Source of the DNA: a virus
Lineage: Duplodnaviria > Heunggongvirae > Uroviricota > Caudoviricetes
DNA: 64,000 nucleotides
Strand: one strand, 5' to 3'
IMG/VR virus record: IMGVR_UViG_3300028591_000093
Location: 80,765 to 144,764 of that record
The notes below the pieces were generated by a model. It was not told the DNA's origin and did not search any database. It saw only the letters and a program-made list of their open reading frames with translations. The stretch's first letter is position 1, and the number at the start of each line of letters is the position of its first letter. The position numbers and the translations under genes were made by a program. Shown one piece after another: positions 3,745 to 31,058 of this stretch.

Positions 3745-4185
3745 ATGATAAGAGTTAGAAACGGTGTTTGGGAAACTAACAGTTCTTCTTGTCATTCAAT
3801 AACTATTCATAAGGGGGATTATGTTCTTAATACTAAGGATTTTGATTCTTATATTACAAATGGTAAGCTTTCTATTGAATTAGGAGAGTTTGGGTGGGGT
3901 TATGATGAGAGTAATGATGGATATGTAAAAGCAAGTTATTTACTTACTATGTGTAAGATGCTTGATAGTACTTGTGATGAGCAAAACATCATAGATTTAT
4001 TAGGTGCTATACTACATATTCATGATATAACTCTTACTAATGAAGACGACTGTTATATTGACCATGAAAGTATAATGAGTTTACATTGTCTATTGGAAGA
4101 AGTTCCTGGAGAATTTCTGTTAGACAAGGTAGAAAGATTCATATTTGACCCTAATATCACTTTAATTATTGATGGAGATGGGTAA
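3745..4185 (+). CDS. ETNSSS-motif protein, paralog 1
   Basis: N-terminus MIRVRNGVWETNSSSCHS; internal GEFGWG, KASYL and YIDHES; overlaps the radical SAM gene. Confidence 0.85.
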   Translation: MIRVRNGVWETNSSSCHSITIHKGDYVLNTKDFDSYITNGKLSIELGEFGWGYDESNDGYVKASYLLTMCKMLDSTCDEQNIIDLLGAILHIHDITLTNEDDCYIDHESIMSLHCLLEEVPGEFLLDKVERFIFDPNITLIIDGDG

Positions 4186-5116
4186 AATTAAAATTATAAG
4201 AAAAGATGAAAAAGTAAATAATATTTTAGGTAGATACAAGAATGGTAATTACAATGTTACTATTTTTGAGGATGGTACAAAAATTAGGGAAACTATAGAC
4301 CCTAATACAACAGAATTTATACCAGAATTTGCAGAAAATGTTGACATTCAATTAACTGATAAATGTAGTCAAGGATGTAGTTTCTGTTATGCAAACTGTA
4401 CAAGGAATGGAGAGCATGGAAAGATTGATTATGAATTCCTAAAACATCTCCATCCTTTTACAGAAGTTGCACTTAATGGTAATGATTGTGACCATCCAGA
4501 TTTGTCTGAACTTTTAGATTTACTTCACAAACAACAGATATTTGCTAACATTACTGTCAATCAGAATCAGTTTATGAGTAATATCAGTAAACTTAAAGAT
4601 TGGACAAACAAGCACCTTATTAGAGGTATTGGCGTTAGCTTAATTAAACCAGATGAAGAGTTCTTTAGTGCTATTAAAGAATTTGATAATTTGGTAGTAC
4701 ATACTGTGCTAGGTGTTACTAGTTTCACAGATTATCGTGCACTATCTGAAAGAAATGCTAAAGTGTTAGTTCTTGGATTCAAGAATAAAGGAAGAGGTGT
4801 AAACTATAAGGTTATACACAATTTAAATGAGAATTCTCTTGAAATGTATGGAGATTTTCTCATGAGTCTTCCTTTTAAAGTGTTGTCTTTTGACAATCTT
4901 GCTCTTGAACAAGCTCATATAAAGGAATCTGTTTCAGAAGAAGTCTGGAACTTACATTATATGGGAGATGATGGACAGTTTACATTCTTTATCAATTTAG
5001 TTAATGGTACTTTTGCAAAGAATTCCTGTGTTAACACTTCATATCCAATTGAAAATAAATCAATTGATGATATGTTTAAATACATAAAGAATGTTAATAC
5101 AATGGTTCAAGGATAA
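4169..5116 (+). CDS. Radical SAM enzyme
   Basis: CxxxCxxC motif CSQGCSFC near the N-terminus; EVALNG matches the GGE-motif position; 315 aa. Confidence 0.9.
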   Translation: MMEMGKIKIIRKDEKVNNILGRYKNGNYNVTIFEDGTKIRETIDPNTTEFIPEFAENVDIQLTDKCSQGCSFCYANCTRNGEHGKIDYEFLKHLHPFTEVALNGNDCDHPDLSELLDLLHKQQIFANITVNQNQFMSNISKLKDWTNKHLIRGIGVSLIKPDEEFFSAIKEFDNLVVHTVLGVTSFTDYRALSERNAKVLVLGFKNKGRGVNYKVIHNLNENSLEMYGDFLMSLPFKVLSFDNLALEQAHIKESVSEEVWNLHYMGDDGQFTFFINLVNGTFAKNSCVNTSYPIENKSIDDMFKYIKNVNTMVQG

Positions 5117-5681
5117 AGTACAAGTACTTAAAGATAAGTATAAGTATTTTAGATGGGAATATCTACCAGATTATCATCCTATTCTTGATTGTGCCTTACA
5201 TGGTGAGTTAAGATGGGGATTGTGGTATTACTGGTGGTCTCAATATTTTGAAGACATCTATGCTAAACTTGCTAAAAAACAATGGGAAATAGTAAGTGGT
5301 GGCTATGATGGTCCATTTGAAGAATGGAAAGATAGGTTTGGTAAAGAAAGGATTTACTATAAGGATTTCTATGATTTAGCAATTAAAAGAAGTCAAGATA
5401 GTAAAGAAAATAGAGATGCTGTTGCAACTAAAAGAGCTCAGACTTGGTTAAGAATGGGTAGATACTTAAATACTCAGCAACTTTGGGAAATGAAAAAATA
5501 CTTCTATAAGATATGTACTCTTAATGAAAAGAACAATTATGGCATTAGAGAAAGGTTTACTTTCTATATGGCAGATATGGGTCTTGATTATGATGAACAT
5601 ATGGCAGAAGTATTACATTTACTACCAGAACCAAATATGAAATTCTATAAATGGATAACTGGGCAAAATGTAGAAGAATGA
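5091..5681 (+). CDS. Hypothetical protein (Trp/Tyr-rich)
   Basis: 196-aa ORF overlapping its neighbours. Confidence 0.7.
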   Translation: MLIQWFKDKVQVLKDKYKYFRWEYLPDYHPILDCALHGELRWGLWYYWWSQYFEDIYAKLAKKQWEIVSGGYDGPFEEWKDRFGKERIYYKDFYDLAIKRSQDSKENRDAVATKRAQTWLRMGRYLNTQQLWEMKKYFYKICTLNEKNNYGIRERFTFYMADMGLDYDEHMAEVLHLLPEPNMKFYKWITGQNVEE

Positions 5682-6412
5682 TGAAAAAGGTTATTTTTCT
5701 AGATTGTGATGGTGTAATCAATAATGCTCATACTTATCATGAACAATATGATGGAGACCATACTCCTCTTTATCTAATCAATGATACATTACTTGATAGA
5801 GTTAAAAAGATTCAGCAAGAAACAGGTGCAGATATTGTATTATCTAGTAGCTGGAGACTTGATGAAGATGGTATTGAAGCTCTTAAAAAGAAAGGTCTTG
5901 AAATCATTGATAAGACACCTTATGTTTGGGATAAAAGAGGATATGAAGTAGATAAATGGTTACAAAGACATTCTGACTATTATGACTATGTTATCTTGGA
6001 TGATATTGTGTATTGGTTTTTACCTTGTCAACAATTTCATATCATACATACTGACCAAGAGACAGGCATAACTGATGAGGATGTTACAAGAGCTATTGAT
6101 ATTCTCAATAACTCTGGAGAAAGAAAATTACTTACCATATGGAGAGAAAGAGGTATTAAATGTCAGTTTGCTACTATCTATGTAGAAACAGCAGGCTGGT
6201 TACATGGTATTATCTGTGAGGACAAGAAAATCTTTTTTGCTCCAGGTTCTGCTTTTAATACTTATTATCTTGATGAAGTAGGTAAAGATACATTTATCCA
6301 CAACACTCCTTATGATAAGCCTTTTGCTAAAACATTTATAGCAGATAGTTATTTCATATTTCATGAAGGAGAGCAAAAAATAGACAAAATAATTGTTTAT
6401 GAGACAGATTAG
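5678..6412 (+). CDS. HAD-superfamily phosphatase (Swiss-army-knife RNA-repair-type HAD) with C-terminal extension
   Basis: FLDCDGV (DxD), VLSSSWR and YVILDD motifs; ends in TAG. Confidence 0.85.
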   Translation: MMKKVIFLDCDGVINNAHTYHEQYDGDHTPLYLINDTLLDRVKKIQQETGADIVLSSSWRLDEDGIEALKKKGLEIIDKTPYVWDKRGYEVDKWLQRHSDYYDYVILDDIVYWFLPCQQFHIIHTDQETGITDEDVTRAIDILNNSGERKLLTIWRERGIKCQFATIYVETAGWLHGIICEDKKIFFAPGSAFNTYYLDEVGKDTFIHNTPYDKPFAKTFIADSYFIFHEGEQKIDKIIVYETD

Positions 6413-6860
6413 ACAAGGTGTATGGGAGACTAACAGCTCTTCCACACATACTTTATCTTTATTTCACACCCATCCTGTTGATATACCCAAGTGGTCTCAC
6501 ATAAAAATCAATAGTGATTATGTAAGTGAACATAGCCTGTATACTTACGATAACATCAATACTGGTTCTTTAAAGAAGTTAATTTTCCTTATTGAGGTTG
6601 TTAACAATATGAATGGTGGAGAACAAGAGTATCTTGATGCTTTGAAAGAAGTAGTATTTGATGAGTTTGGAACTCAAATTGAAATTGATTATGATGAAAT
6701 GTTGGAAGATGACAATGATTCTGCAACTGACATTCTGTATCAATTCATTTATAGTACTACAAATAAGAGAGGCTTGAATCTTGCTAACTTTAAAGAGATG
6801 GCAAGAATTGTTCTTACTGATGAAACTATTGTTCTTGAAAGTTCTAATGTTGAGAACTGA
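6399..6860 (+). CDS. ETNSSS-motif protein, paralog 2
   Basis: N-terminus MRQIRQGVWETNSSSTHT. Confidence 0.85.
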   Translation: MRQIRQGVWETNSSSTHTLSLFHTHPVDIPKWSHIKINSDYVSEHSLYTYDNINTGSLKKLIFLIEVVNNMNGGEQEYLDALKEVVFDEFGTQIEIDYDEMLEDDNDSATDILYQFIYSTTNKRGLNLANFKEMARIVLTDETIVLESSNVEN

Positions 6861-7480
6861 TGAAACAAATTAGGATAGGTGTCTGGGAAACTAATTCCAG
6901 TAGTTCTCATTCTCTTTCTGTTGGTAAAGCTCATGATATAATTCTTCAGACTATTCTAGATGAATATGAATCTTCTGAGAGTTCAAGTGAGTGGGCAGAA
7001 GAACAGGAAGAGTTTGAGAAAACCCATATATTGAAATTGGGGGATACTGTAGATTTCCCTGATGATGGAGAAAGTGAAAGAGATTATTTAGTTACTGTTG
7101 CAAGAAGTCTTGTAAGTAAACTCAATGTATTATGGGGATTGTTTATATCTGATATAAATACATATGATAAGCCACTTGCTGAGATGATGAAGGAACATAG
7201 GGTAAAGTTATTTATTACTCTTTGTGAGAAATATCTGAAAGATATGCCTGACCTTCAAATCAATATAAAGCCAACAGTAGGTAATCCTTTTTTCTGGAAA
7301 GATGCATGGACAACAAAGTACTATTATTCAAATATTTCTGATGGTGTTTTAGATAATAAAACAGATGAGGAATGTGAAGAATACTTTAGAAATGCTCTTG
7401 ACCAGGAATCAATTGTCTTAATGGACTGCCCATATGGTGGTCTGAATCAATGGACACACATAATTATAAAGATAATTTAA
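6860..7480 (+). CDS. ETNSSS-motif protein, paralog 3
   Basis: N-terminus MKQIRIGVWETNSSSSHS; TGATG overlap with paralog 2. Confidence 0.85.
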   Translation: MKQIRIGVWETNSSSSHSLSVGKAHDIILQTILDEYESSESSSEWAEEQEEFEKTHILKLGDTVDFPDDGESERDYLVTVARSLVSKLNVLWGLFISDINTYDKPLAEMMKEHRVKLFITLCEKYLKDMPDLQINIKPTVGNPFFWKDAWTTKYYYSNISDGVLDNKTDEECEEYFRNALDQESIVLMDCPYGGLNQWTHIIIKII

Positions 7481-8335: not shown

Positions 8336-8863
8336 ATGATTAAAGAATTACTAAAAGAAAAAGGATTAGTTGTTATTCCAGAGGAAATTGATGAGGAAAA
8401 AGCAATAGAAGCAATCCTTAAATTGATTAGTCTTCATAGAGAACTACCTGATAATGAGAGTATTACATTGTTTATTTGCAGTGGCGGTGGAACTTGTGAT
8501 GTTTCTCTTGCTATTATTGATACAATAGAACAAATCAAAAAAGAAGGTAGAGTTGTGAAGGCTTATTGTACAGGTAGAGTTGAAAGCATGGCTTGTTATA
8601 TAGCTCTAAGCTGTACTAAAGGAGAAAGGTATACTACTCCTAAAACTACTTTTATGGTTCATGATATTCATTGGAATCCAGAAGGTAGTTCAATAGATAT
8701 AAAAAATAAGTATAAAAGTTTAGAAATAACTAATACTCATATCAAAAACTTAATATCAAATTACTCTTCAGAAAAACTATTGGAACTTATTGAAACTAAC
8801 ACTGACAGATTTCTCTATGCAGAGGAAGCTTTGGAGTTAGGAATCATAGACAGTATTTTATAA
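8336..8863 (+). CDS. clpP: ClpP-like serine protease
   Basis: ICSGGG, ESMA (catalytic Ser), FMVHD (His), DR-FL-AEEALELGIID. Confidence 0.85.
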   Translation: MIKELLKEKGLVVIPEEIDEEKAIEAILKLISLHRELPDNESITLFICSGGGTCDVSLAIIDTIEQIKKEGRVVKAYCTGRVESMACYIALSCTKGERYTTPKTTFMVHDIHWNPEGSSIDIKNKYKSLEITNTHIKNLISNYSSEKLLELIETNTDRFLYAEEALELGIIDSIL

Positions 8864-9331: not shown

Positions 9332-10167
9332 TAAATGATTTTAGCTCTTATATATGGAGGCTAGAAAGACCAACTGGAAACAGAACTGAAAAGCAGAAGA
9401 CTGTCAGAATGATTGATATGAATGAAGAGGAACTCCTTAAAGCATATCAGCATTGTAAAGACATGCTTTTTAACTCTTCAAGAAAGAATCCAGGTAGAGT
9501 TTTAGTCTTGGAGCAACTCAAAAACCAGCTTGCTAAATGTAATGCTGAGGGATTAAGAAGATGGTATCTTGACTTAGAAGATGAGAATGGTGAGAAGAAA
9601 TTCACTAGTTCTACTCTTTTGGCAGATATTAGAATGTATCCTTATCTTAAAGAAGTGCAACTCAAAGAAGGTGAGGAATTACTTGTATCCCATTTTGTTA
9701 GTGTTCCAGCAGAATTCAAGAATGTTACAATAGAAGACCTTAAGTTAGCTTGTTTATATCATCTTGGTAACTTTGACCATTCTCATTTAACCTTTACATT
9801 CTTATTTAATATGGGTGTATGGTATACATTTGATGATGAGCAAAGATTAGAAGAACAAGTTGGTAAGAATGACAAAGCAAAACTTGAAAGAGTAAAGGAA
9901 TGGATAGGTCTTGACCCAAACACTCCACTCAAGTTTTCTTCTTCTGGTTTAAGCGTAACTCAATTAACAGAAATGTTTGAGTTAAAGAAGAAGAGATACC
10001 CTTCCTATTACATGATGAATACTATTCAATTGACTGTATTGAGAACAAAGGTGCTTGATTTGTTGATTGATACTGTAGAGAAACATGCTAAGATTTGGAA
10101 GCTTCTAATGAAACAAATTGAAGAAGTTGCTCAGTATAAGGGTTATGATTTACAAGCTGGACTATGA
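9328..10167 (+). CDS. Hypothetical protein upstream of PolB
   Basis: 279-aa ORF with ATGA overlaps on both sides. Confidence 0.8.
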   Translation: MINDFSSYIWRLERPTGNRTEKQKTVRMIDMNEEELLKAYQHCKDMLFNSSRKNPGRVLVLEQLKNQLAKCNAEGLRRWYLDLEDENGEKKFTSSTLLADIRMYPYLKEVQLKEGEELLVSHFVSVPAEFKNVTIEDLKLACLYHLGNFDHSHLTFTFLFNMGVWYTFDDEQRLEEQVGKNDKAKLERVKEWIGLDPNTPLKFSSSGLSVTQLTEMFELKKKRYPSYYMMNTIQLTVLRTKVLDLLIDTVEKHAKIWKLLMKQIEEVAQYKGYDLQAGL

Positions 10168-12248
10168 TAATAAAAGGAAAGCCAGTAGCAGTATATGATA
10201 TTGAGGTCTTTTCTAATTGTTTTCATTGTGTAGTAAAGGATACAGAAACAGGAGAAATATTTAAATTTGAAATATCTGAAAGAAAAAATCAGATAAAAGA
10301 ATTGATTCAGTTCTTCTGGAGAACTAAGTATCTGATGTGTGGATATAACTGTATCCATTATGATAACCCTATTATAAACTATATCCTCGATTATAGAATC
10401 ACACTTTCCAACTTAGGATATAGTAGGATTTGTCAAAGTTTATTTAATCTAAGTAACACCATTATTGGTACAGATGACTTTGATTCTTGGAAAAAGTGGA
10501 AATATGCTAAAAACTTTAGTACTCTTGACCTTTTAACTATGCTCTTTTCTCAAAAATTAAGAGTAGGTTTGAAGGAAATGCAGGTCACAATGCAGTATAA
10601 AAATGTACAAGAGTATGATGGTGACTTTAGAAAACCAATTCCTGTAACAGATATAGATAATATGATTCAGTATAATATCAATGATGTATTGAGTACTGAA
10701 GAACTTCTCTATAGATGTAAAAAACAGATTGAACTTAGACTTGGTATTGAAGAAGAATATGGAGTTGATGTTCTAAGTAAGGATGGTATGTCTATTGGCA
10801 TGGAAATTTTAAAGGTTAAGTATCTTGAAAAGACTGGCAAGTCTTGGAATGATATTAAAGACCTTAGAAGTCCATGTGATGCCATTGATTTAAGTAAAGT
10901 TATATTTCCAGTTATTAACTTTAACACTCCTGTGTTGCAACAATTACTAGAAGAAATGAAATCCTTAATTGTCAGTCCTGGCAGAAAGGGTTATGAAAAA
11001 CATTTCTTACTACAAAATGTAGAAGTTGTAGTTGGTGTTGGTGGTATTCATACAAAGAATAAACCAGAAGTTATTATTCCAAATGAAAATCAAGATTTAC
11101 TAGATAGTGATGTTAATTCCCTATATCCTTCTCTTGTTATTAGTTATGGTCTAGTTCCGCCTCATCTTGGGAAGCAGTTCCTAGAGATATATGGTGATGT
11201 AAGAACAGAAAGACTTGAAGCTAAAGCTACTGGTAAGAAGATTAAAAATGAGACTTTAAAGTTGAGTTTAAATGGACTTACTGGTAATCTTCAGAATGAG
11301 TATAGTTGGGTTTACTCTCCTGAAACTGTAATGAAAATAAGAATCAATGGACAATTGTTCTTGTTAATGCTTGCAGAAAGATTGATTGCAATTGGAGCTA
11401 CTATCATTCAGTTAAATACTGATGGTGTACTCTATTTAATTGATAAAGATAAGAGACCTCTTTTGGATAAAGTGTTAAAAGGTTGGGAAGAAATAACCAA
11501 GCTTACACTTGAAACAGAAGAATTTGAAGCTTTCTATCAATATGCCATCAATGACTATTTGGGTATTAGTAAAGGTTATGCTCAAAAGAAGAAAGAATTT
11601 GAAGAAGGAAAAGCCTTTAATAAGAAAGGTGAACAGTATACATCACTATCTCAAATAAAAGATGACTTCTTGAAAAAGAAGGGTCTTTTTATTGATACTG
11701 TCACTCTAGGTAAAGGTATGCAACCAATGATTATACCTAAAGCCATCAATGATTATTTATCTGATGGAATACCTATTAGAGATACAATAAGGGCATGTAG
11801 GAATATAAATGATTTTATTACTTATCAGAAAGTTGATAAGAAATTTTCTGTAGAATATAATGGTAAGTTAATCAACAGAATTAACAGATATTATGTATCT
11901 ACAAAAGGCTATTATTTGTATAAGTGTGTAGTAAACAATGTTTATGTTGATGAGGAATATGCAGAAATAGAGGTTAAAGCAACTGGTCAAAGGATGGAAC
12001 TTCCTGTTAGAGTTCTAATGGAAGAAAATCCAGGAGATAAGGTACATGTTATTAAATATTTTTACAAAGGTACACCAAGAGAAAGAAGAGATGACTATTC
12101 TAGTATGTTATCTGCTTCTGGTGTAAAAATTGTAAATAACCTTGAAGAAGTGCAAGAATTCCCAGACGATATAAACTACTCTTATTATATAAATGAAGCT
12201 AATAAAATTATTGCTCCATTTGCTCTTAGACAGTTATCATTGTTTTGA
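10164..12248 (+). CDS. polB: DNA polymerase family B
   Basis: Exonuclease YDIE and YN-x-x-x-YD; polymerase DVNSLYPS, KLSLNGLTG and NTDG. Confidence 0.95.
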   Translation: MIIKGKPVAVYDIEVFSNCFHCVVKDTETGEIFKFEISERKNQIKELIQFFWRTKYLMCGYNCIHYDNPIINYILDYRITLSNLGYSRICQSLFNLSNTIIGTDDFDSWKKWKYAKNFSTLDLLTMLFSQKLRVGLKEMQVTMQYKNVQEYDGDFRKPIPVTDIDNMIQYNINDVLSTEELLYRCKKQIELRLGIEEEYGVDVLSKDGMSIGMEILKVKYLEKTGKSWNDIKDLRSPCDAIDLSKVIFPVINFNTPVLQQLLEEMKSLIVSPGRKGYEKHFLLQNVEVVVGVGGIHTKNKPEVIIPNENQDLLDSDVNSLYPSLVISYGLVPPHLGKQFLEIYGDVRTERLEAKATGKKIKNETLKLSLNGLTGNLQNEYSWVYSPETVMKIRINGQLFLLMLAERLIAIGATIIQLNTDGVLYLIDKDKRPLLDKVLKGWEEITKLTLETEEFEAFYQYAINDYLGISKGYAQKKKEFEEGKAFNKKGEQYTSLSQIKDDFLKKKGLFIDTVTLGKGMQPMIIPKAINDYLSDGIPIRDTIRACRNINDFITYQKVDKKFSVEYNGKLINRINRYYVSTKGYYLYKCVVNNVYVDEEYAEIEVKATGQRMELPVRVLMEENPGDKVHVIKYFYKGTPRERRDDYSSMLSASGVKIVNNLEEVQEFPDDINYSYYINEANKIIAPFALRQLSLF

Positions 12249-30293: not shown

Positions 30294-30528
30294 AAGAAAA
30301 TTTGATGGAACAGTAGTAGTCCTCGATTTTAGAACAGAAAGTGTAGATTTGATACATTTTTCAAAAGAGGATGTTCATGATGGTGACTTTGATTCATTAC
30401 TTATGGATTATGGCTATGATTTAGATAACATCAGGTATATGGTAACAAATGAAGCAAGAATCAGTAAATACTGGTTTGCTGATGGAGGTTATCTAGGTTG
30501 TTATAAAAATTATAGGAGTTACTATTGA
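30286..30528 (+). CDS. Hypothetical protein
   Basis: 80-aa ORF. Confidence 0.6.
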   Translation: MSKRKFDGTVVVLDFRTESVDLIHFSKEDVHDGDFDSLLMDYGYDLDNIRYMVTNEARISKYWFADGGYLGCYKNYRSYY

Positions 30529-31058
30529 TGAATCAAGTTAAATATACAGAAACTGTTGTAAGTTTTTCAGAAGTTCCTGATGAGATTTCTCTTTGTATAA
30601 ATATTTCCAATTGCCCTTTTAAATGTCCTGGATGTCATTCACCATATTTACAAGAAGATGTTGGTGCATTGCTAACAGAAGCAAAACTTAGTGAATTGGT
30701 AAAAAATAATCCTGGAATTACTTGTGTATGTTTTATGGGAGGTGATAAATCTCCAAAAAGAATAAATCATTTACTTGAGTATGTAAAGGAAGAATTTGAT
30801 TTGAAAACAGCTTGGTATAGTGGAGCAAATATTTTAAATCGTCATGTTCATATCTACAATCTTAACTATTTGAAGTTAGGTCCTTATAGAGAAGATTTGG
30901 GGGGTTTAGATAAGTATCCACTTACTAATCAAAGAATGTATCAAATTGAAGAATTACATCAGGATACACCTTTTGGAAGAGTAGTATTTATACAAAAAGA
31001 CATAACAAAAAAGTTTGTACATAACAATGAAGATATTAGTAAAGACACAAAATCCTAA
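30525..31058 (+). CDS. nrdG: Anaerobic RNR activating enzyme (radical SAM)
   Basis: CPFKCPGC and FMGGD; near nrdD. Confidence 0.9.
   Translation: MMNQVKYTETVVSFSEVPDEISLCINISNCPFKCPGCHSPYLQEDVGALLTEAKLSELVKNNPGITCVCFMGGDKSPKRINHLLEYVKEEFDLKTAWYSGANILNRHVHIYNLNYLKLGPYREDLGGLDKYPLTNQRMYQIEELHQDTPFGRVVFIQKDITKKFVHNNEDISKDTKS

Follow-up and report, generated by a model that had tools for sequence, protein, structure and literature searches.

RiPP radical SAM maturases (SuiB/SuiA for streptide, SkfB, CteB, EpeE and ChlB/ChlA) are encoded beside one or several substrate genes that carry a conserved recognition peptide, and they bind that peptide within the barrel and by strand addition to an N-terminal domain. 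Nearly all known peptide-modifying radical SAM enzymes have the cysteines of SPASM/twitch auxiliary clusters. The enzymes anSME and AtsB mature many whole sulfatases through a short Ser-containing motif near the N-terminus, and the single-cluster activases PflA and NrdG (about 250–300 aa) are encoded adjacent to a folded partner protein, a loop of which enters the barrel. In bacteria, the KpAvs2 system has an accessory pair consisting of the radical SAM protein Avap1, which is unlike viperin, and the DUF6375 protein Avap2 (Bechon et al., 2024, PMC11564622), and radical SAM-SPASM peptide systems of the FxSxx type, distinct from the module described here, have also been reported (Kaur et al., 2020, PMC7159879). 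We analysed a 64,000-nucleotide stretch (the window) of a Caudoviricetes virus, IMG/VR record IMGVR_UViG_3300028591_000093, in which a radical SAM gene shares an operon with genes for three proteins that begin with a common tag. This module of an enzyme and tagged proteins occurs in thousands of uncultivated phages, and it has the look of a protein-modification system that has yet to be described.

Six plus-strand genes between positions 3745 and 7480 overlap or abut, forming one operon. The first (3745..4185) encodes tagged protein 1 and overlaps the radical SAM gene (4169..5116) by 17 nt, in agreement with the first-pass annotation of this DNA; that annotation also described the enzyme as flanked by three paralogs, which is true of the adjoining upstream gene, but paralogs 2 (6399..6860) and 3 (6860..7480) sit downstream of two intervening genes. 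The first of these, a Trp/Tyr-rich ORF of 196 aa (5091..5681, plus strand), had no Pfam, PHROG, NCBIfam or PADLOC match and no homolog in the other module loci compared, and is a lineage-specific passenger rather than a conserved part of the module. The second (5651..6412, plus strand) encodes a HAD_SAK_2 phosphatase of 253 aa with a C-terminal extension (PF18143 at 2.7e-26), is found in just one other locus, and is likewise a passenger. Neighbour clustering over 75 dereplicated loci returned no third conserved module gene. The top neighbour clusters were antisense ORFs within the radical SAM gene. Lak phages, to which the window is related, recode TAG; we rejected recoding for the operon region because the genes form a coherent operon under table 11, and translation through TAG would lengthen the HAD gene by just 7 codons.

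The three tagged ORFs share the start R-x-G-V-W-E-T-N-S-S-S-x-H, just as the first-pass annotation wrote, and have little similarity otherwise. Protein 1 (146 aa) begins MIRVRNGVWETNSSSCHS at 3745, protein 2 (153 aa) begins MRQIRQGVWETNSSSTHT at ATG 6399, with a TTG at 6393 as a second open start, and protein 3 (206 aa) begins MKQIRIGVWETNSSSSHS at 6860. A three-way alignment has 12 invariant columns in the first 18 versus 8 in the remainder, and a degenerate DNA pattern for G-V-W-E-T-N matches exactly the three paralog starts (0.01 matches expected from shuffles). Because the three coding copies of the tag differ at synonymous positions, this points to selection on the protein and not to recent gene conversion. 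Protein 1 belongs to the canonical subfamily, with a tag (residues 1–21, 3745..3807, plus strand) followed by the body motifs GEFGWG, K..SY, YIDHES and IIDGDG; proteins 2 and 3 have intact tags and have both lost these body motifs, the body of protein 3 being acidic and divergent. All three match the family profile (6.5e-40, 1.9e-16 and 3.7e-21 for paralogs 1, 2 and 3) and, together with the operon's enzyme, combine the tag with a type-1 radical SAM gene in the manner of the otherwise unnamed ETNSSS-tag family (PHROG 28997).

A profile search found 5,966 clusters of this family at 50% identity, with tandem arrays of 2–6 tagged genes per enzyme as the rule. All members have just one feature in common, an N-terminal tag some 20 residues long (h-R-x-x-V-[FW]-E-T-N-S-S-S-x-H-[SA]) in which, across 449 copies, R, E, N, S and S are 100% conserved and a further S and the H are 99% conserved. 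All body motifs are kept in 30 of 469 copies and none in 241; the conserved part of the family is the tag, not the body. Pfam, NCBIfam, PADLOC and PDB sequence profiles returned nothing meaningful for the tagged proteins, nor did fold comparisons by Foldseek against the PDB (best E 1.3) or by VIA-align against 48,161 chains (best Z 3.2), neither of which placed a tagged body in a sulfatase/alkaline-phosphatase-type fold; look-alikes in the ESM Atlas were unnamed viral clusters only. A Toprim- or Rossmann-like arrangement, with the tag as strand 1 and the loop after it, was supported by neither the model nor the searches. The first-pass annotation had conceded that the motif might simply be a buried strand of a known fold, and what we observe is different: in the AF2 monomer model of paralog 1 the body has a pLDDT above 90 and the tag below 50, the body has no solved-fold match, and most members keep only the tag.

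The canonical body nevertheless has invariant, enzyme-like polar residues (K62, Y65, D106, H107, Q108, S109, D143 and D145), and the tag could belong to the body's own active site. The small proteins would then be metal-dependent enzymes of novel fold, with the tag as an active-site strand or loop and the radical SAM protein as a pathway partner acting on a shared small-molecule or nucleic-acid substrate. This would suit the E, H, D, H, D, D-type residues that are invariant over four motifs in the canonical subfamily, as well as the position of the operon among nucleotide- and RNA-repair-type genes (metallophosphoesterase, NADAR and the HAD_SAK_2 phosphatase). We consider it improbable, given that the full motif set is so rarely kept while the tag is invariant, that paralogs 2 and 3 have dispensed with it, and that the tag is both the sole low-confidence part of the monomer model and the sole part predicted to contact the radical SAM enzyme; moreover, we found no fold or sequence relative of the small proteins and no further pathway gene conserved with the pair.

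The ORF at 4169–5116, annotated in the first pass as a radical SAM gene, is a true but divergent radical SAM enzyme. It encodes 315 aa when counted from TTG 4169, with ATG 4172 or 4178 the more likely start, and has a partial TIM barrel and a single [4Fe-4S] motif, C66-S-Q-G-C70-S-F-C73 (4364..4387, plus strand), in which an aromatic residue precedes the last Cys. The window's enzyme had no Pfam match at E 0.01, Radical_SAM (PF04055) included. It matches PHROG 16999 (5e-32) and our radical SAM family profile A3 (1.4e-111), its profile matches solved radical SAM enzymes, with the family's A-I-G-G-G-N-P aligned with G-G-E-P of SuiB (E 4.7e-5), and its AF2 model (pLDDT 91.7) has radical SAM enzymes as top Foldseek matches. 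The solved structures nearest to the model are mostly peptide- or protein-modifying enzymes (SkfB, SuiB, CteB, EpeE and anSME), the RiPP maturases being the best matches (Foldseek E 1e-6 to 1e-3, TM about 0.5). In a 37-sequence alignment of the family C66, C70 and C73 are the sole invariant cysteines and no SPASM/twitch auxiliary-cluster cysteines are conserved; some relatives carry insertion variants of the cluster motif (Cx5-14CxxC). A small activase-like ORF, distinct from the operon's enzyme, lies elsewhere in the window (30525–31058); its Fer4_12 domain is in keeping with a putative NrdG, the gene that the first-pass annotation placed there.

The first-pass annotation had staked its reading on a genomic association between tag and radical SAM genes, and we found one in both directions. 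Of 80 tag-centred IMG/VR loci, 71 carry a radical SAM homolog; three of the other nine stop just beyond the tag gene and are uninformative. Conversely, 78 of 79 radical SAM-centred viral loci carry a tag gene, as do 72 of 73 informative radical SAM clusters after dereplication at 60% identity. In each of the 222 tag–enzyme pairs both genes are on the same strand, and the median gap between them is 17 bp; the two families are near-obligate neighbours. The enzyme, searched for separately, has about 3,700 relatives, and the phages that carry the two families are for the most part large ones from gut, rumen and aquatic settings, the Lak megaphages among them. In 50,697 cultured-phage records the families co-occur in Lak phages, the Microcystis Ma-LMM01 group and Salmonella phage Arash. 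Gp130 of Ma-LMM01 opens V-F-E-T-N-S-S-S-T-H-S and is encoded two genes upstream of gp128 ('Fe-S oxidoreductase'); the pair falls in PHROG 28997 and 16999 and both are true members of their families. In Arash gp146c ('methyltransferase') the tag reads F-A-T-N-S-S-S-S-H-S. These members are annotated merely as hypothetical, Fe-S oxidoreductase or methyltransferase, and are uncharacterised. Tag and enzyme are also fused, in the order tag-body-radical SAM in Arash gp146c, P0126 and P0291 and in the order radical SAM-tag-body in L092 and L094, and a targeted search for longer fused relatives, in which long candidates crowd the results, found at least three.

This linkage bears on whether the tag might act independently of the enzyme, either as an autoprocessing site (Ser-Ser pyruvoyl formation or Asn-Ser cleavage) or as a capsid-targeting or packaging signal. 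The Ser run does resemble serinolysis sites, and the internal proteins of phage T4 offer a precedent for conserved N-terminal peptides on hypervariable phage proteins. We regard such a role as highly unlikely here, since the enzyme-independent Ser-Ser autoprocessing that the first-pass annotation had entertained, like a targeting signal, would leave unexplained why the tag genes are so constantly adjacent to, on the same strand as, and at times fused with a single radical SAM family, and strict linkage of this kind is not a feature of pyruvoyl-dependent enzymes. It also counts against both ideas that the tag of L092 is internal to the fusion protein, and that the Arash fusion Gp146 is not among the 116 proteins of the permissive particle proteome of that phage (PMC10585845).

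A complex prediction of the kind the first-pass annotation had suggested combined the radical SAM enzyme, its 4Fe-4S cluster, SAM and paralog 1 in three runs with three controls. The runs gave ipSAE values of 0.93, 0.92 and 0.91 versus 0.00 for the best of the controls. In the tool's calibration, 58 of 80 solved complexes attain this mark, as do 2 of 110 mismatched pairs; our custom alignments and the ligands depart from that calibration. The three runs had at least 70% of contacts in common and a partner pLDDT of at least 78. Only residues 1–21 of paralog 1 form the predicted interface (211–234 contacts, all on the tag), with no body residue touching the enzyme, and on the enzyme side the tag meets the N-terminal three-strand sheet (residues 19–42) and barrel strands at 59, 99–103, 125–129, 152–155, 174–178 and 198–200. 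The tag is thus predicted to dock inside the radical SAM barrel, with a score that may be inflated by memory of solved RiPP maturase–peptide complexes.

A sister module in the same genome offers what we take as independent support for the predicted interface. It has tags of the form I-Q-S-x-S-D-[VI]-I-T-N-S-S-S-E-[LIV]-F, linked in 79 of 80 loci to a radical SAM enzyme of their own, which passes PF04055 (38.1 bits versus a cut-off of 29.5) and matches the A3 profile at 2e-15. The sister tags and the window tags have only T-N-S-S-S in common. Of the enzyme positions conserved within but differing between the module types, 12 of 19 fall in the predicted tag interface, compared to a background of 62 of 315 (Fisher p = 2e-5), and the type-specific changes show charge parallels, with D35 to N and K198 to Y in the enzyme and R to S and E to I in the tag. 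From this enrichment it follows that pocket and module type vary together, which is not in itself proof that the tag gets transformed.

On balance we lean towards a mechanism in which the radical SAM enzyme docks the tag and chemically modifies it within T-N-S-S-S, with one enzyme serving all tagged paralogs. The tag would be a handle for the dedicated enzyme encoded in the same operon, its first strand (residues 3–8) joining the enzyme's conserved N-terminal beta-sheet (residues 35–40), and this strand addition would thread [FW]-E-T-N-S-S-S-x-H into the barrel beside SAM and the [4Fe-4S] cluster. Once SAM is reductively cleaved, the resulting 5'-deoxyadenosyl radical would take a hydrogen from a residue of the invariant core, leading to a covalent change, for which Ser/Thr oxidation to a carbonyl, dehydration, epimerisation, a cross-link and backbone cleavage are candidates. 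A single enzyme would act on every tagged paralog, of which there are three here, and the divergent bodies would carry the functions in infection. The first-pass proposal of a recognition and modification tag read by the neighbouring enzyme thus gains support from linkage, fusions and predicted docking as far as recognition goes, while from the same evidence, which is wholly genomic or model-based, we infer that the tag is modified and at which residues. The accompanying analogy to Ser-to-formylglycine maturation of sulfatases fails: the auxiliary-cluster cysteines and the C/S-x-P-x-R motif are both absent.

The module has both likenesses to and differences from the described systems. Like the RiPP maturases, the enzyme is encoded beside genes with a conserved recognition peptide and is predicted to bind it in the barrel and by strand addition, but the partners are folded proteins of 100–250 aa rather than short precursors with a variable core, it is the conserved segment that is predicted to occupy the active site, a small sheet of three strands stands in place of the winged-helix RRE, and the host is a phage. 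With anSME, one of its structural matches, it would have in common the maturation of many whole proteins through a short Ser-containing N-terminal motif, although both of the anSME auxiliary clusters are missing. PflA and NrdG are similar in their single cluster, gene adjacency and entry of a partner segment into the barrel (here predicted); in contrast to the partners of those activases, the tagged proteins are small and diverse, their motif is N-terminal and not C-terminal, and the tag has no invariant Gly of the R-V-x-G loop type, position -5 being G in just 60% of copies. The missing auxiliary-cluster cysteines count against modification, as they remove the usual route for oxidative chemistry.

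Single-cluster enzymes are, however, normal among radical SAM enzymes acting on small molecules and nucleic acids, and this favours an alternative to which we give a lesser but real chance, namely a stable holoenzyme. The tag would stay docked permanently, completing or capping the radical SAM site, and the bodies would be adaptor or specificity subunits for nucleic-acid, nucleotide or host-protein targets. The fusions in both orders and the large predicted interface are in keeping with this, several bodies per enzyme would suit alternative specificity subunits, and for Arash, whose sole tagged domain is the one fused to the enzyme, an enzyme–substrate pair is no better an account than a permanent two-domain enzyme. 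Yet a barrel-filling peptide leaves scant room for another substrate, no body–enzyme contact is predicted, and bodies that in 241 of 469 copies are without a common motif give no sign of a shared second substrate. The T-N-S-S-S core is also invariant across two radical SAM branches with re-tuned pockets, which chemistry on the core explains more easily than docking alone.

If the tag is modified, as we prefer to think, radical SAM enzymes would gain a new protein modification, one made without an auxiliary cluster, with an invariant T-N-S-S-S acceptor and whole proteins as substrates. It would open a first way into thousands of phage 'hypothetical proteins', and supply a defined, testable enzyme–substrate pair with a compact recognition tag that is perhaps portable. 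More speculatively, and at somewhat less than even chances, T-N-S-S-S tags and single-cluster radical SAM enzymes may constitute a phage-wide protein-tagging system in several branches (two of them here), placing a new modification or cofactor on proteins of many folds, with the tagged proteins as effectors in phage–host conflict that are possibly mirrored by the radical SAM accessory pairs of bacterial Avs2 operons. The likeness to Avap1/Avap2, compared by description and Pfam family, is that of an uncharacterised radical SAM protein and a small protein in phage–host conflict. PF19902 (DUF6375) had no match in the 169-kb genome at E values up to 10, in the tagged-family alignment A2, or in four module-bearing genomes, and none in 401 Bacillota genomes, though control genomes gave no match either; no STAND NTPase lies in or near the operon. 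A literature search found no paper that prints ETNSSS, its TNSSS matches being unrelated, and a search on phage radical SAM proteins found nothing on the tag–enzyme module. The presence of the module in two cultured phages, Ma-LMM01 and Arash, makes genetics feasible now.

The span 3745-7480 of the window was called as a single plus-strand operon of six ORFs, each overlapping or abutting the next: tagged protein 1 (paralog 1, 3745-4185), an enzyme of the radical SAM (rSAM) superfamily (4169-5116), an ORF of unknown function rich in Trp and Tyr (5091-5681), a HAD_SAK_2 phosphatase (5651-6412; PF18143, 2.7e-26), and tagged proteins 2 (6399-6860) and 3 (6860-7480). The viral record holding the window is 169 kb with an estimated completeness of 89%, and code 11 is adequate for the operon region, though the phage is a distant relative of the TAG-recoding Lak megaphages. 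Within a 3.7-kb region searched by blastn, Prevotella Lak megaphage DNA matches the rSAM gene only (window 4232-5025, 68-73% identity); the tagged genes have no blastn-level match to Lak megaphages there, having diverged past the reach of the method.

The first-pass annotation described three proteins that begin almost identically and share little else, and both points hold: the near-identical starts lie at 3745, 6399 and 6860, and their alignment is invariant at 12 of its first 18 columns and at 8 of all the others. A degenerate DNA pattern for G-V-W-E-T-N finds exactly the three tag sites (3 matches versus 0.01 expected by chance), and because synonymous positions differ among the three copies, the constraint acts on the peptide. 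Searching 1.84 billion representative proteins with a profile of the tagged family returned 5,966 clusters (50% identity) at E ≤ 1e-3 and 2,772 at E ≤ 1e-10, nearly all 140-190 aa long with the motif at residues 1-3. No relatives were found in Pfam, NCBIfam, PADLOC or the PDB, and PHROG 28997, to which the family corresponds, has no function assigned. Relative to N-S-S-S, conservation of the tag over 449 copies is 100% for R(-7), E(-2), N and the first two serines, 99% for the third serine and H(+5), 95% for T(-1) and 92% for F(-3). The motifs GEFGWG, K..SY, YIDHQS and IIDNDNH are conserved in the bodies of the subfamily nearest paralog 1; among 469 copies from 231 loci, 30 keep all of them and 241 keep none, and the window's paralogs 2 and 3 have kept the tag but not these motifs. 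When paralog 1 is modelled as a monomer, pLDDT is >90 for most of residues 30-140 but <50 for the tag, and the body has no solved-fold match (best Foldseek E 1.3, best VIA-align Z 3.2), so the motif is not a buried strand of a known fold. Had it been one, this would have counted against the proposal of the first-pass annotation. That each tagged protein is a self-contained metalloenzyme, with the motif as its own active site, we regard as highly improbable.

On its own the window rSAM protein has no Pfam match, and none of its ~3,700 relatives at E ≤ 1e-3 carries a precomputed Pfam domain. ORF 4169-5116 is a real but divergent radical SAM enzyme, as judged from a match to PHROG 16999 ("Fe-S oxidoreductase", 5e-32); from the cluster motif C66-x3-C70-x-F-C73, kept in relatives, some with an insertion between cysteines 1 and 2; from a 37-sequence profile that matches solved rSAM structures (SuiB at 4.7e-5, then GDGT-MAS, viperin and SkfB) across the cluster motif and GGE-type strand; and from an AF2 model (pLDDT 91.7) with a partial TIM barrel, whose best Foldseek matches are GDGT-MAS, SkfB, SuiB, CteB, BlsE, EpeE and anSME (E 1e-6 to 1e-3, TM ~0.5). 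The three cluster cysteines are the only ones conserved in the 37-sequence alignment, so the family has no SPASM or twitch auxiliary cluster. Ahead of the barrel, residues 19-42 form a three-strand sheet that is highly conserved (Y23, N25, G26, N27, D35, G36, T37).

The association with radical SAM genes that the first-pass annotation suggested looking for was found in both directions. IMG/VR loci fetched by the tag contain a homolog of the window rSAM in 71 of 80 cases, nearly always as the next gene on the same strand, and 3 of the 9 without it stop just past the tag gene. Loci fetched by the rSAM include one or more tag genes in 78 of 79 cases, usually 2-6 in tandem, and the sole exception has just 733 bp upstream of the enzyme gene. 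After dereplication at 60% identity (75 clusters), a tag gene occurs in 72 of 73 informative rSAM clusters; all 222 rSAM-tag pairs in this set are on the same strand, with a median gap of 17 bp and 174 within 50 bp. The pair has no other conserved companion gene, so the Trp/Tyr-rich ORF and HAD gene of the window are passengers. Among 50,697 cultured-phage records, both families co-occur in the same few phages, namely Lak, the Ma-LMM01 group of Microcystis phages and the Salmonella phage Arash. The enzyme is rare among prokaryotes (122 matches at one genome per species, most of them in MAG contigs from the gut); of the 80 prokaryote-genome loci kept, 71 have a tag gene together with the enzyme. 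These data settle that the three tagged ORFs and the rSAM function together as one module, part of a very large system that has no name and is carried mostly by phages.

We then co-folded the rSAM with a 4Fe-4S cluster, SAM and paralog 1, using family alignments for both proteins and three controls. The complex reached ipSAE 0.93, 0.92 and 0.91 in three runs versus 0.00 for the best control. In the calibration of the tool, 58 of 80 solved complexes attained this mark, as did 2 of 110 mismatched pairs. The values are to be read with care, since custom alignments and ligands depart from that calibration and likeness to solved complexes may inflate the score. At least 70% of contacts were common to the three runs, with partner pLDDT of at least 78. 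The paralog 1 side of the predicted interface comprises residues 1-21 only, consistent with the disordered tag of the monomer model and with the freely varying bodies. In the model, tag residues 3-5 pair with enzyme residues 37-40 as a strand added to the N-terminal sheet, and tag W9 contacts enzyme residues 36, 99, 127, 152 and 153; the remaining enzyme interface is formed by barrel strands (59, 99-103, 125-129, 152-155, 174-178 and 198-200) and segments 238-243, 262-274 and 284-286. This predicted interface holds many of the enzyme family's invariant residues, and the tag likely binds in the enzyme's substrate cavity.

The same genome carries a sister module outside the window (G000:C1:53729-55658 of the whole viral record; L246:351-2280), which we call type 2. 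Two small ORFs begin ...I-Q-S-I-S-D-[VI]-I-T-N-S-S-S-E-L-F and are directly followed by a second rSAM (299 aa) that passes Pfam Radical_SAM (PF04055, 38.1 bits) and hits the profile of the type-1 enzymes at 2e-15. Of 80 viral loci retrieved with the type-2 tag, 79 carry this rSAM alongside 2-5 tagged genes, the exception being a 2-kb fragment. T-N-S-S-S is all that the two tags have in common, and type-2 tagged proteins escape the type-1 family profile. In an alignment of 125 type-1 and 14 type-2 enzymes, 19 positions are conserved within each type and different between types, and 12 of the 19 fall in the predicted tag interface, compared with 62 of 315 for the background (odds ratio 8.4; p = 2e-5 by Fisher's test). 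Among the 19 are D35 to N and K198 to Y in the enzyme, which go along with R(-7) to S and E(-2) to I in the tag; E99, S240 and S286 also count among the class-specific pocket residues. The interface residues D59, A101, N127, T129 and G153 are conserved in both types and may be the ones that contact the T-N-S-S-S core common to the two tags. The enrichment shows an enzyme pocket tuned to module type, which is not proof that the tag is transformed. Separately, the type-2 rSAM gene is split at the GGE-motif strand by a ~1.3-kb insert in several related phages, at locus L257 (6835-9129) and also in L260, L264, L269, L308, L316, L317 and L321; since the L257 insert encodes a GIY-YIG homing-endonuclease-like ORF (L257:7188-7598), this conserved phage gene likely carries a group I intron.

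Natural fusions strongly imply that tag proteins and rSAM physically associate. Arash gp146c (L082:4491-5921, OQ632216.1) has the order tag-body-rSAM, its start reading F-A-T-N-S-S-S-S-H-S and a later stretch C-D-L-A-C-K-F-C; its "methyltransferase" annotation looks wrong, the protein being instead an ETNSSS-family domain fused to a type-1 radical SAM domain. Proteins P0126 and P0291 share this order, loci L092 and L094 have the reverse (rSAM-tag-body, with the tag internal), and P0067 consists of two tagged domains in tandem. The internal tags indicate that a free N-terminus is not essential. A role of the motif as an autoprocessing site or a packaging signal is the least probable of the alternatives, and as to packaging, the Arash fusion protein Gp146 is absent from the phage's permissive particle proteome (PMC10585845).

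We favour, with modest confidence, the reading in which the tag is the substrate of the rSAM, because 1-6 tagged proteins share one enzyme, their bodies are free of constraint, and a five-residue core is invariant across enzyme branches with otherwise re-tuned pockets. Lacking an auxiliary cluster, such an enzyme might carry out viperin- or DesII-like elimination or oxidation, epimerisation, cross-linking or radical backbone cleavage. The main rival is a stable holoenzyme, whose tag would serve for docking or as part of the active site while other substrates would be chosen by the bodies. It fits well with the fusions, the enzyme without an auxiliary cluster, and Arash, whose only tagged domain is the fused gp146c copy; we nevertheless think it rather unlikely. 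As far as computation can go, the analysis supports the proposal of the first-pass annotation that the motif is a recognition or modification tag for the adjacent radical SAM enzyme.

In how it would work, the module resembles RiPP maturases and their leader-bearing precursors, or anSME and its sulfatases. However, it lacks the SPASM cysteines and short precursor of the former and the C/S-x-P-x-R motif of the latter, so the likeness to sulfatase maturation drawn in the first-pass annotation fails on its defining features, and the invariant glycine of glycyl-radical substrates is absent from its tag. The accessory pair of KpAvs2, Avap1 (rSAM) and Avap2 (DUF6375), is likewise uncharacterised (PMC11564622), and DUF6375 has no match in this genome. 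The motif is not printed in any paper of the literature searched. Pairing an rSAM enzyme with proteins that bear a tag is a known kind of arrangement, of which this module is an undescribed form, open to direct test in vitro and in two cultured phages.

Other genes in this genome also drew our attention. Outside the window, a 195-aa ORF (G000:C1:60442-61029) begins with T-D-K-C-x3-C-x2-C, closely resembling the start of the type-1 rSAM, and could be a third small protein of radical SAM type. The genes just upstream of the module are those of a calcineurin-like metallophosphoesterase (955-1668) and a NADAR domain protein (2185-2748), with an unknown ORF between them (1649-2188); together with the HAD_SAK_2 phosphatase (5651-6412) they make up a set typical of ADP-ribose/RNA-repair-type conflict genes, and none of these genes is conserved with the rSAM module in other loci. 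Just downstream is a ClpP-family protease (8336-8863; PF00574, 3.3e-28), placed in the early/replication region and not in a head-morphogenesis block. Further on, a 694-aa ORF (10164-12248) with no Pfam match at 1e-3 has DNA polymerase B-like motifs (e.g. N-T-D-G), making it a candidate for a very divergent replicative polymerase.
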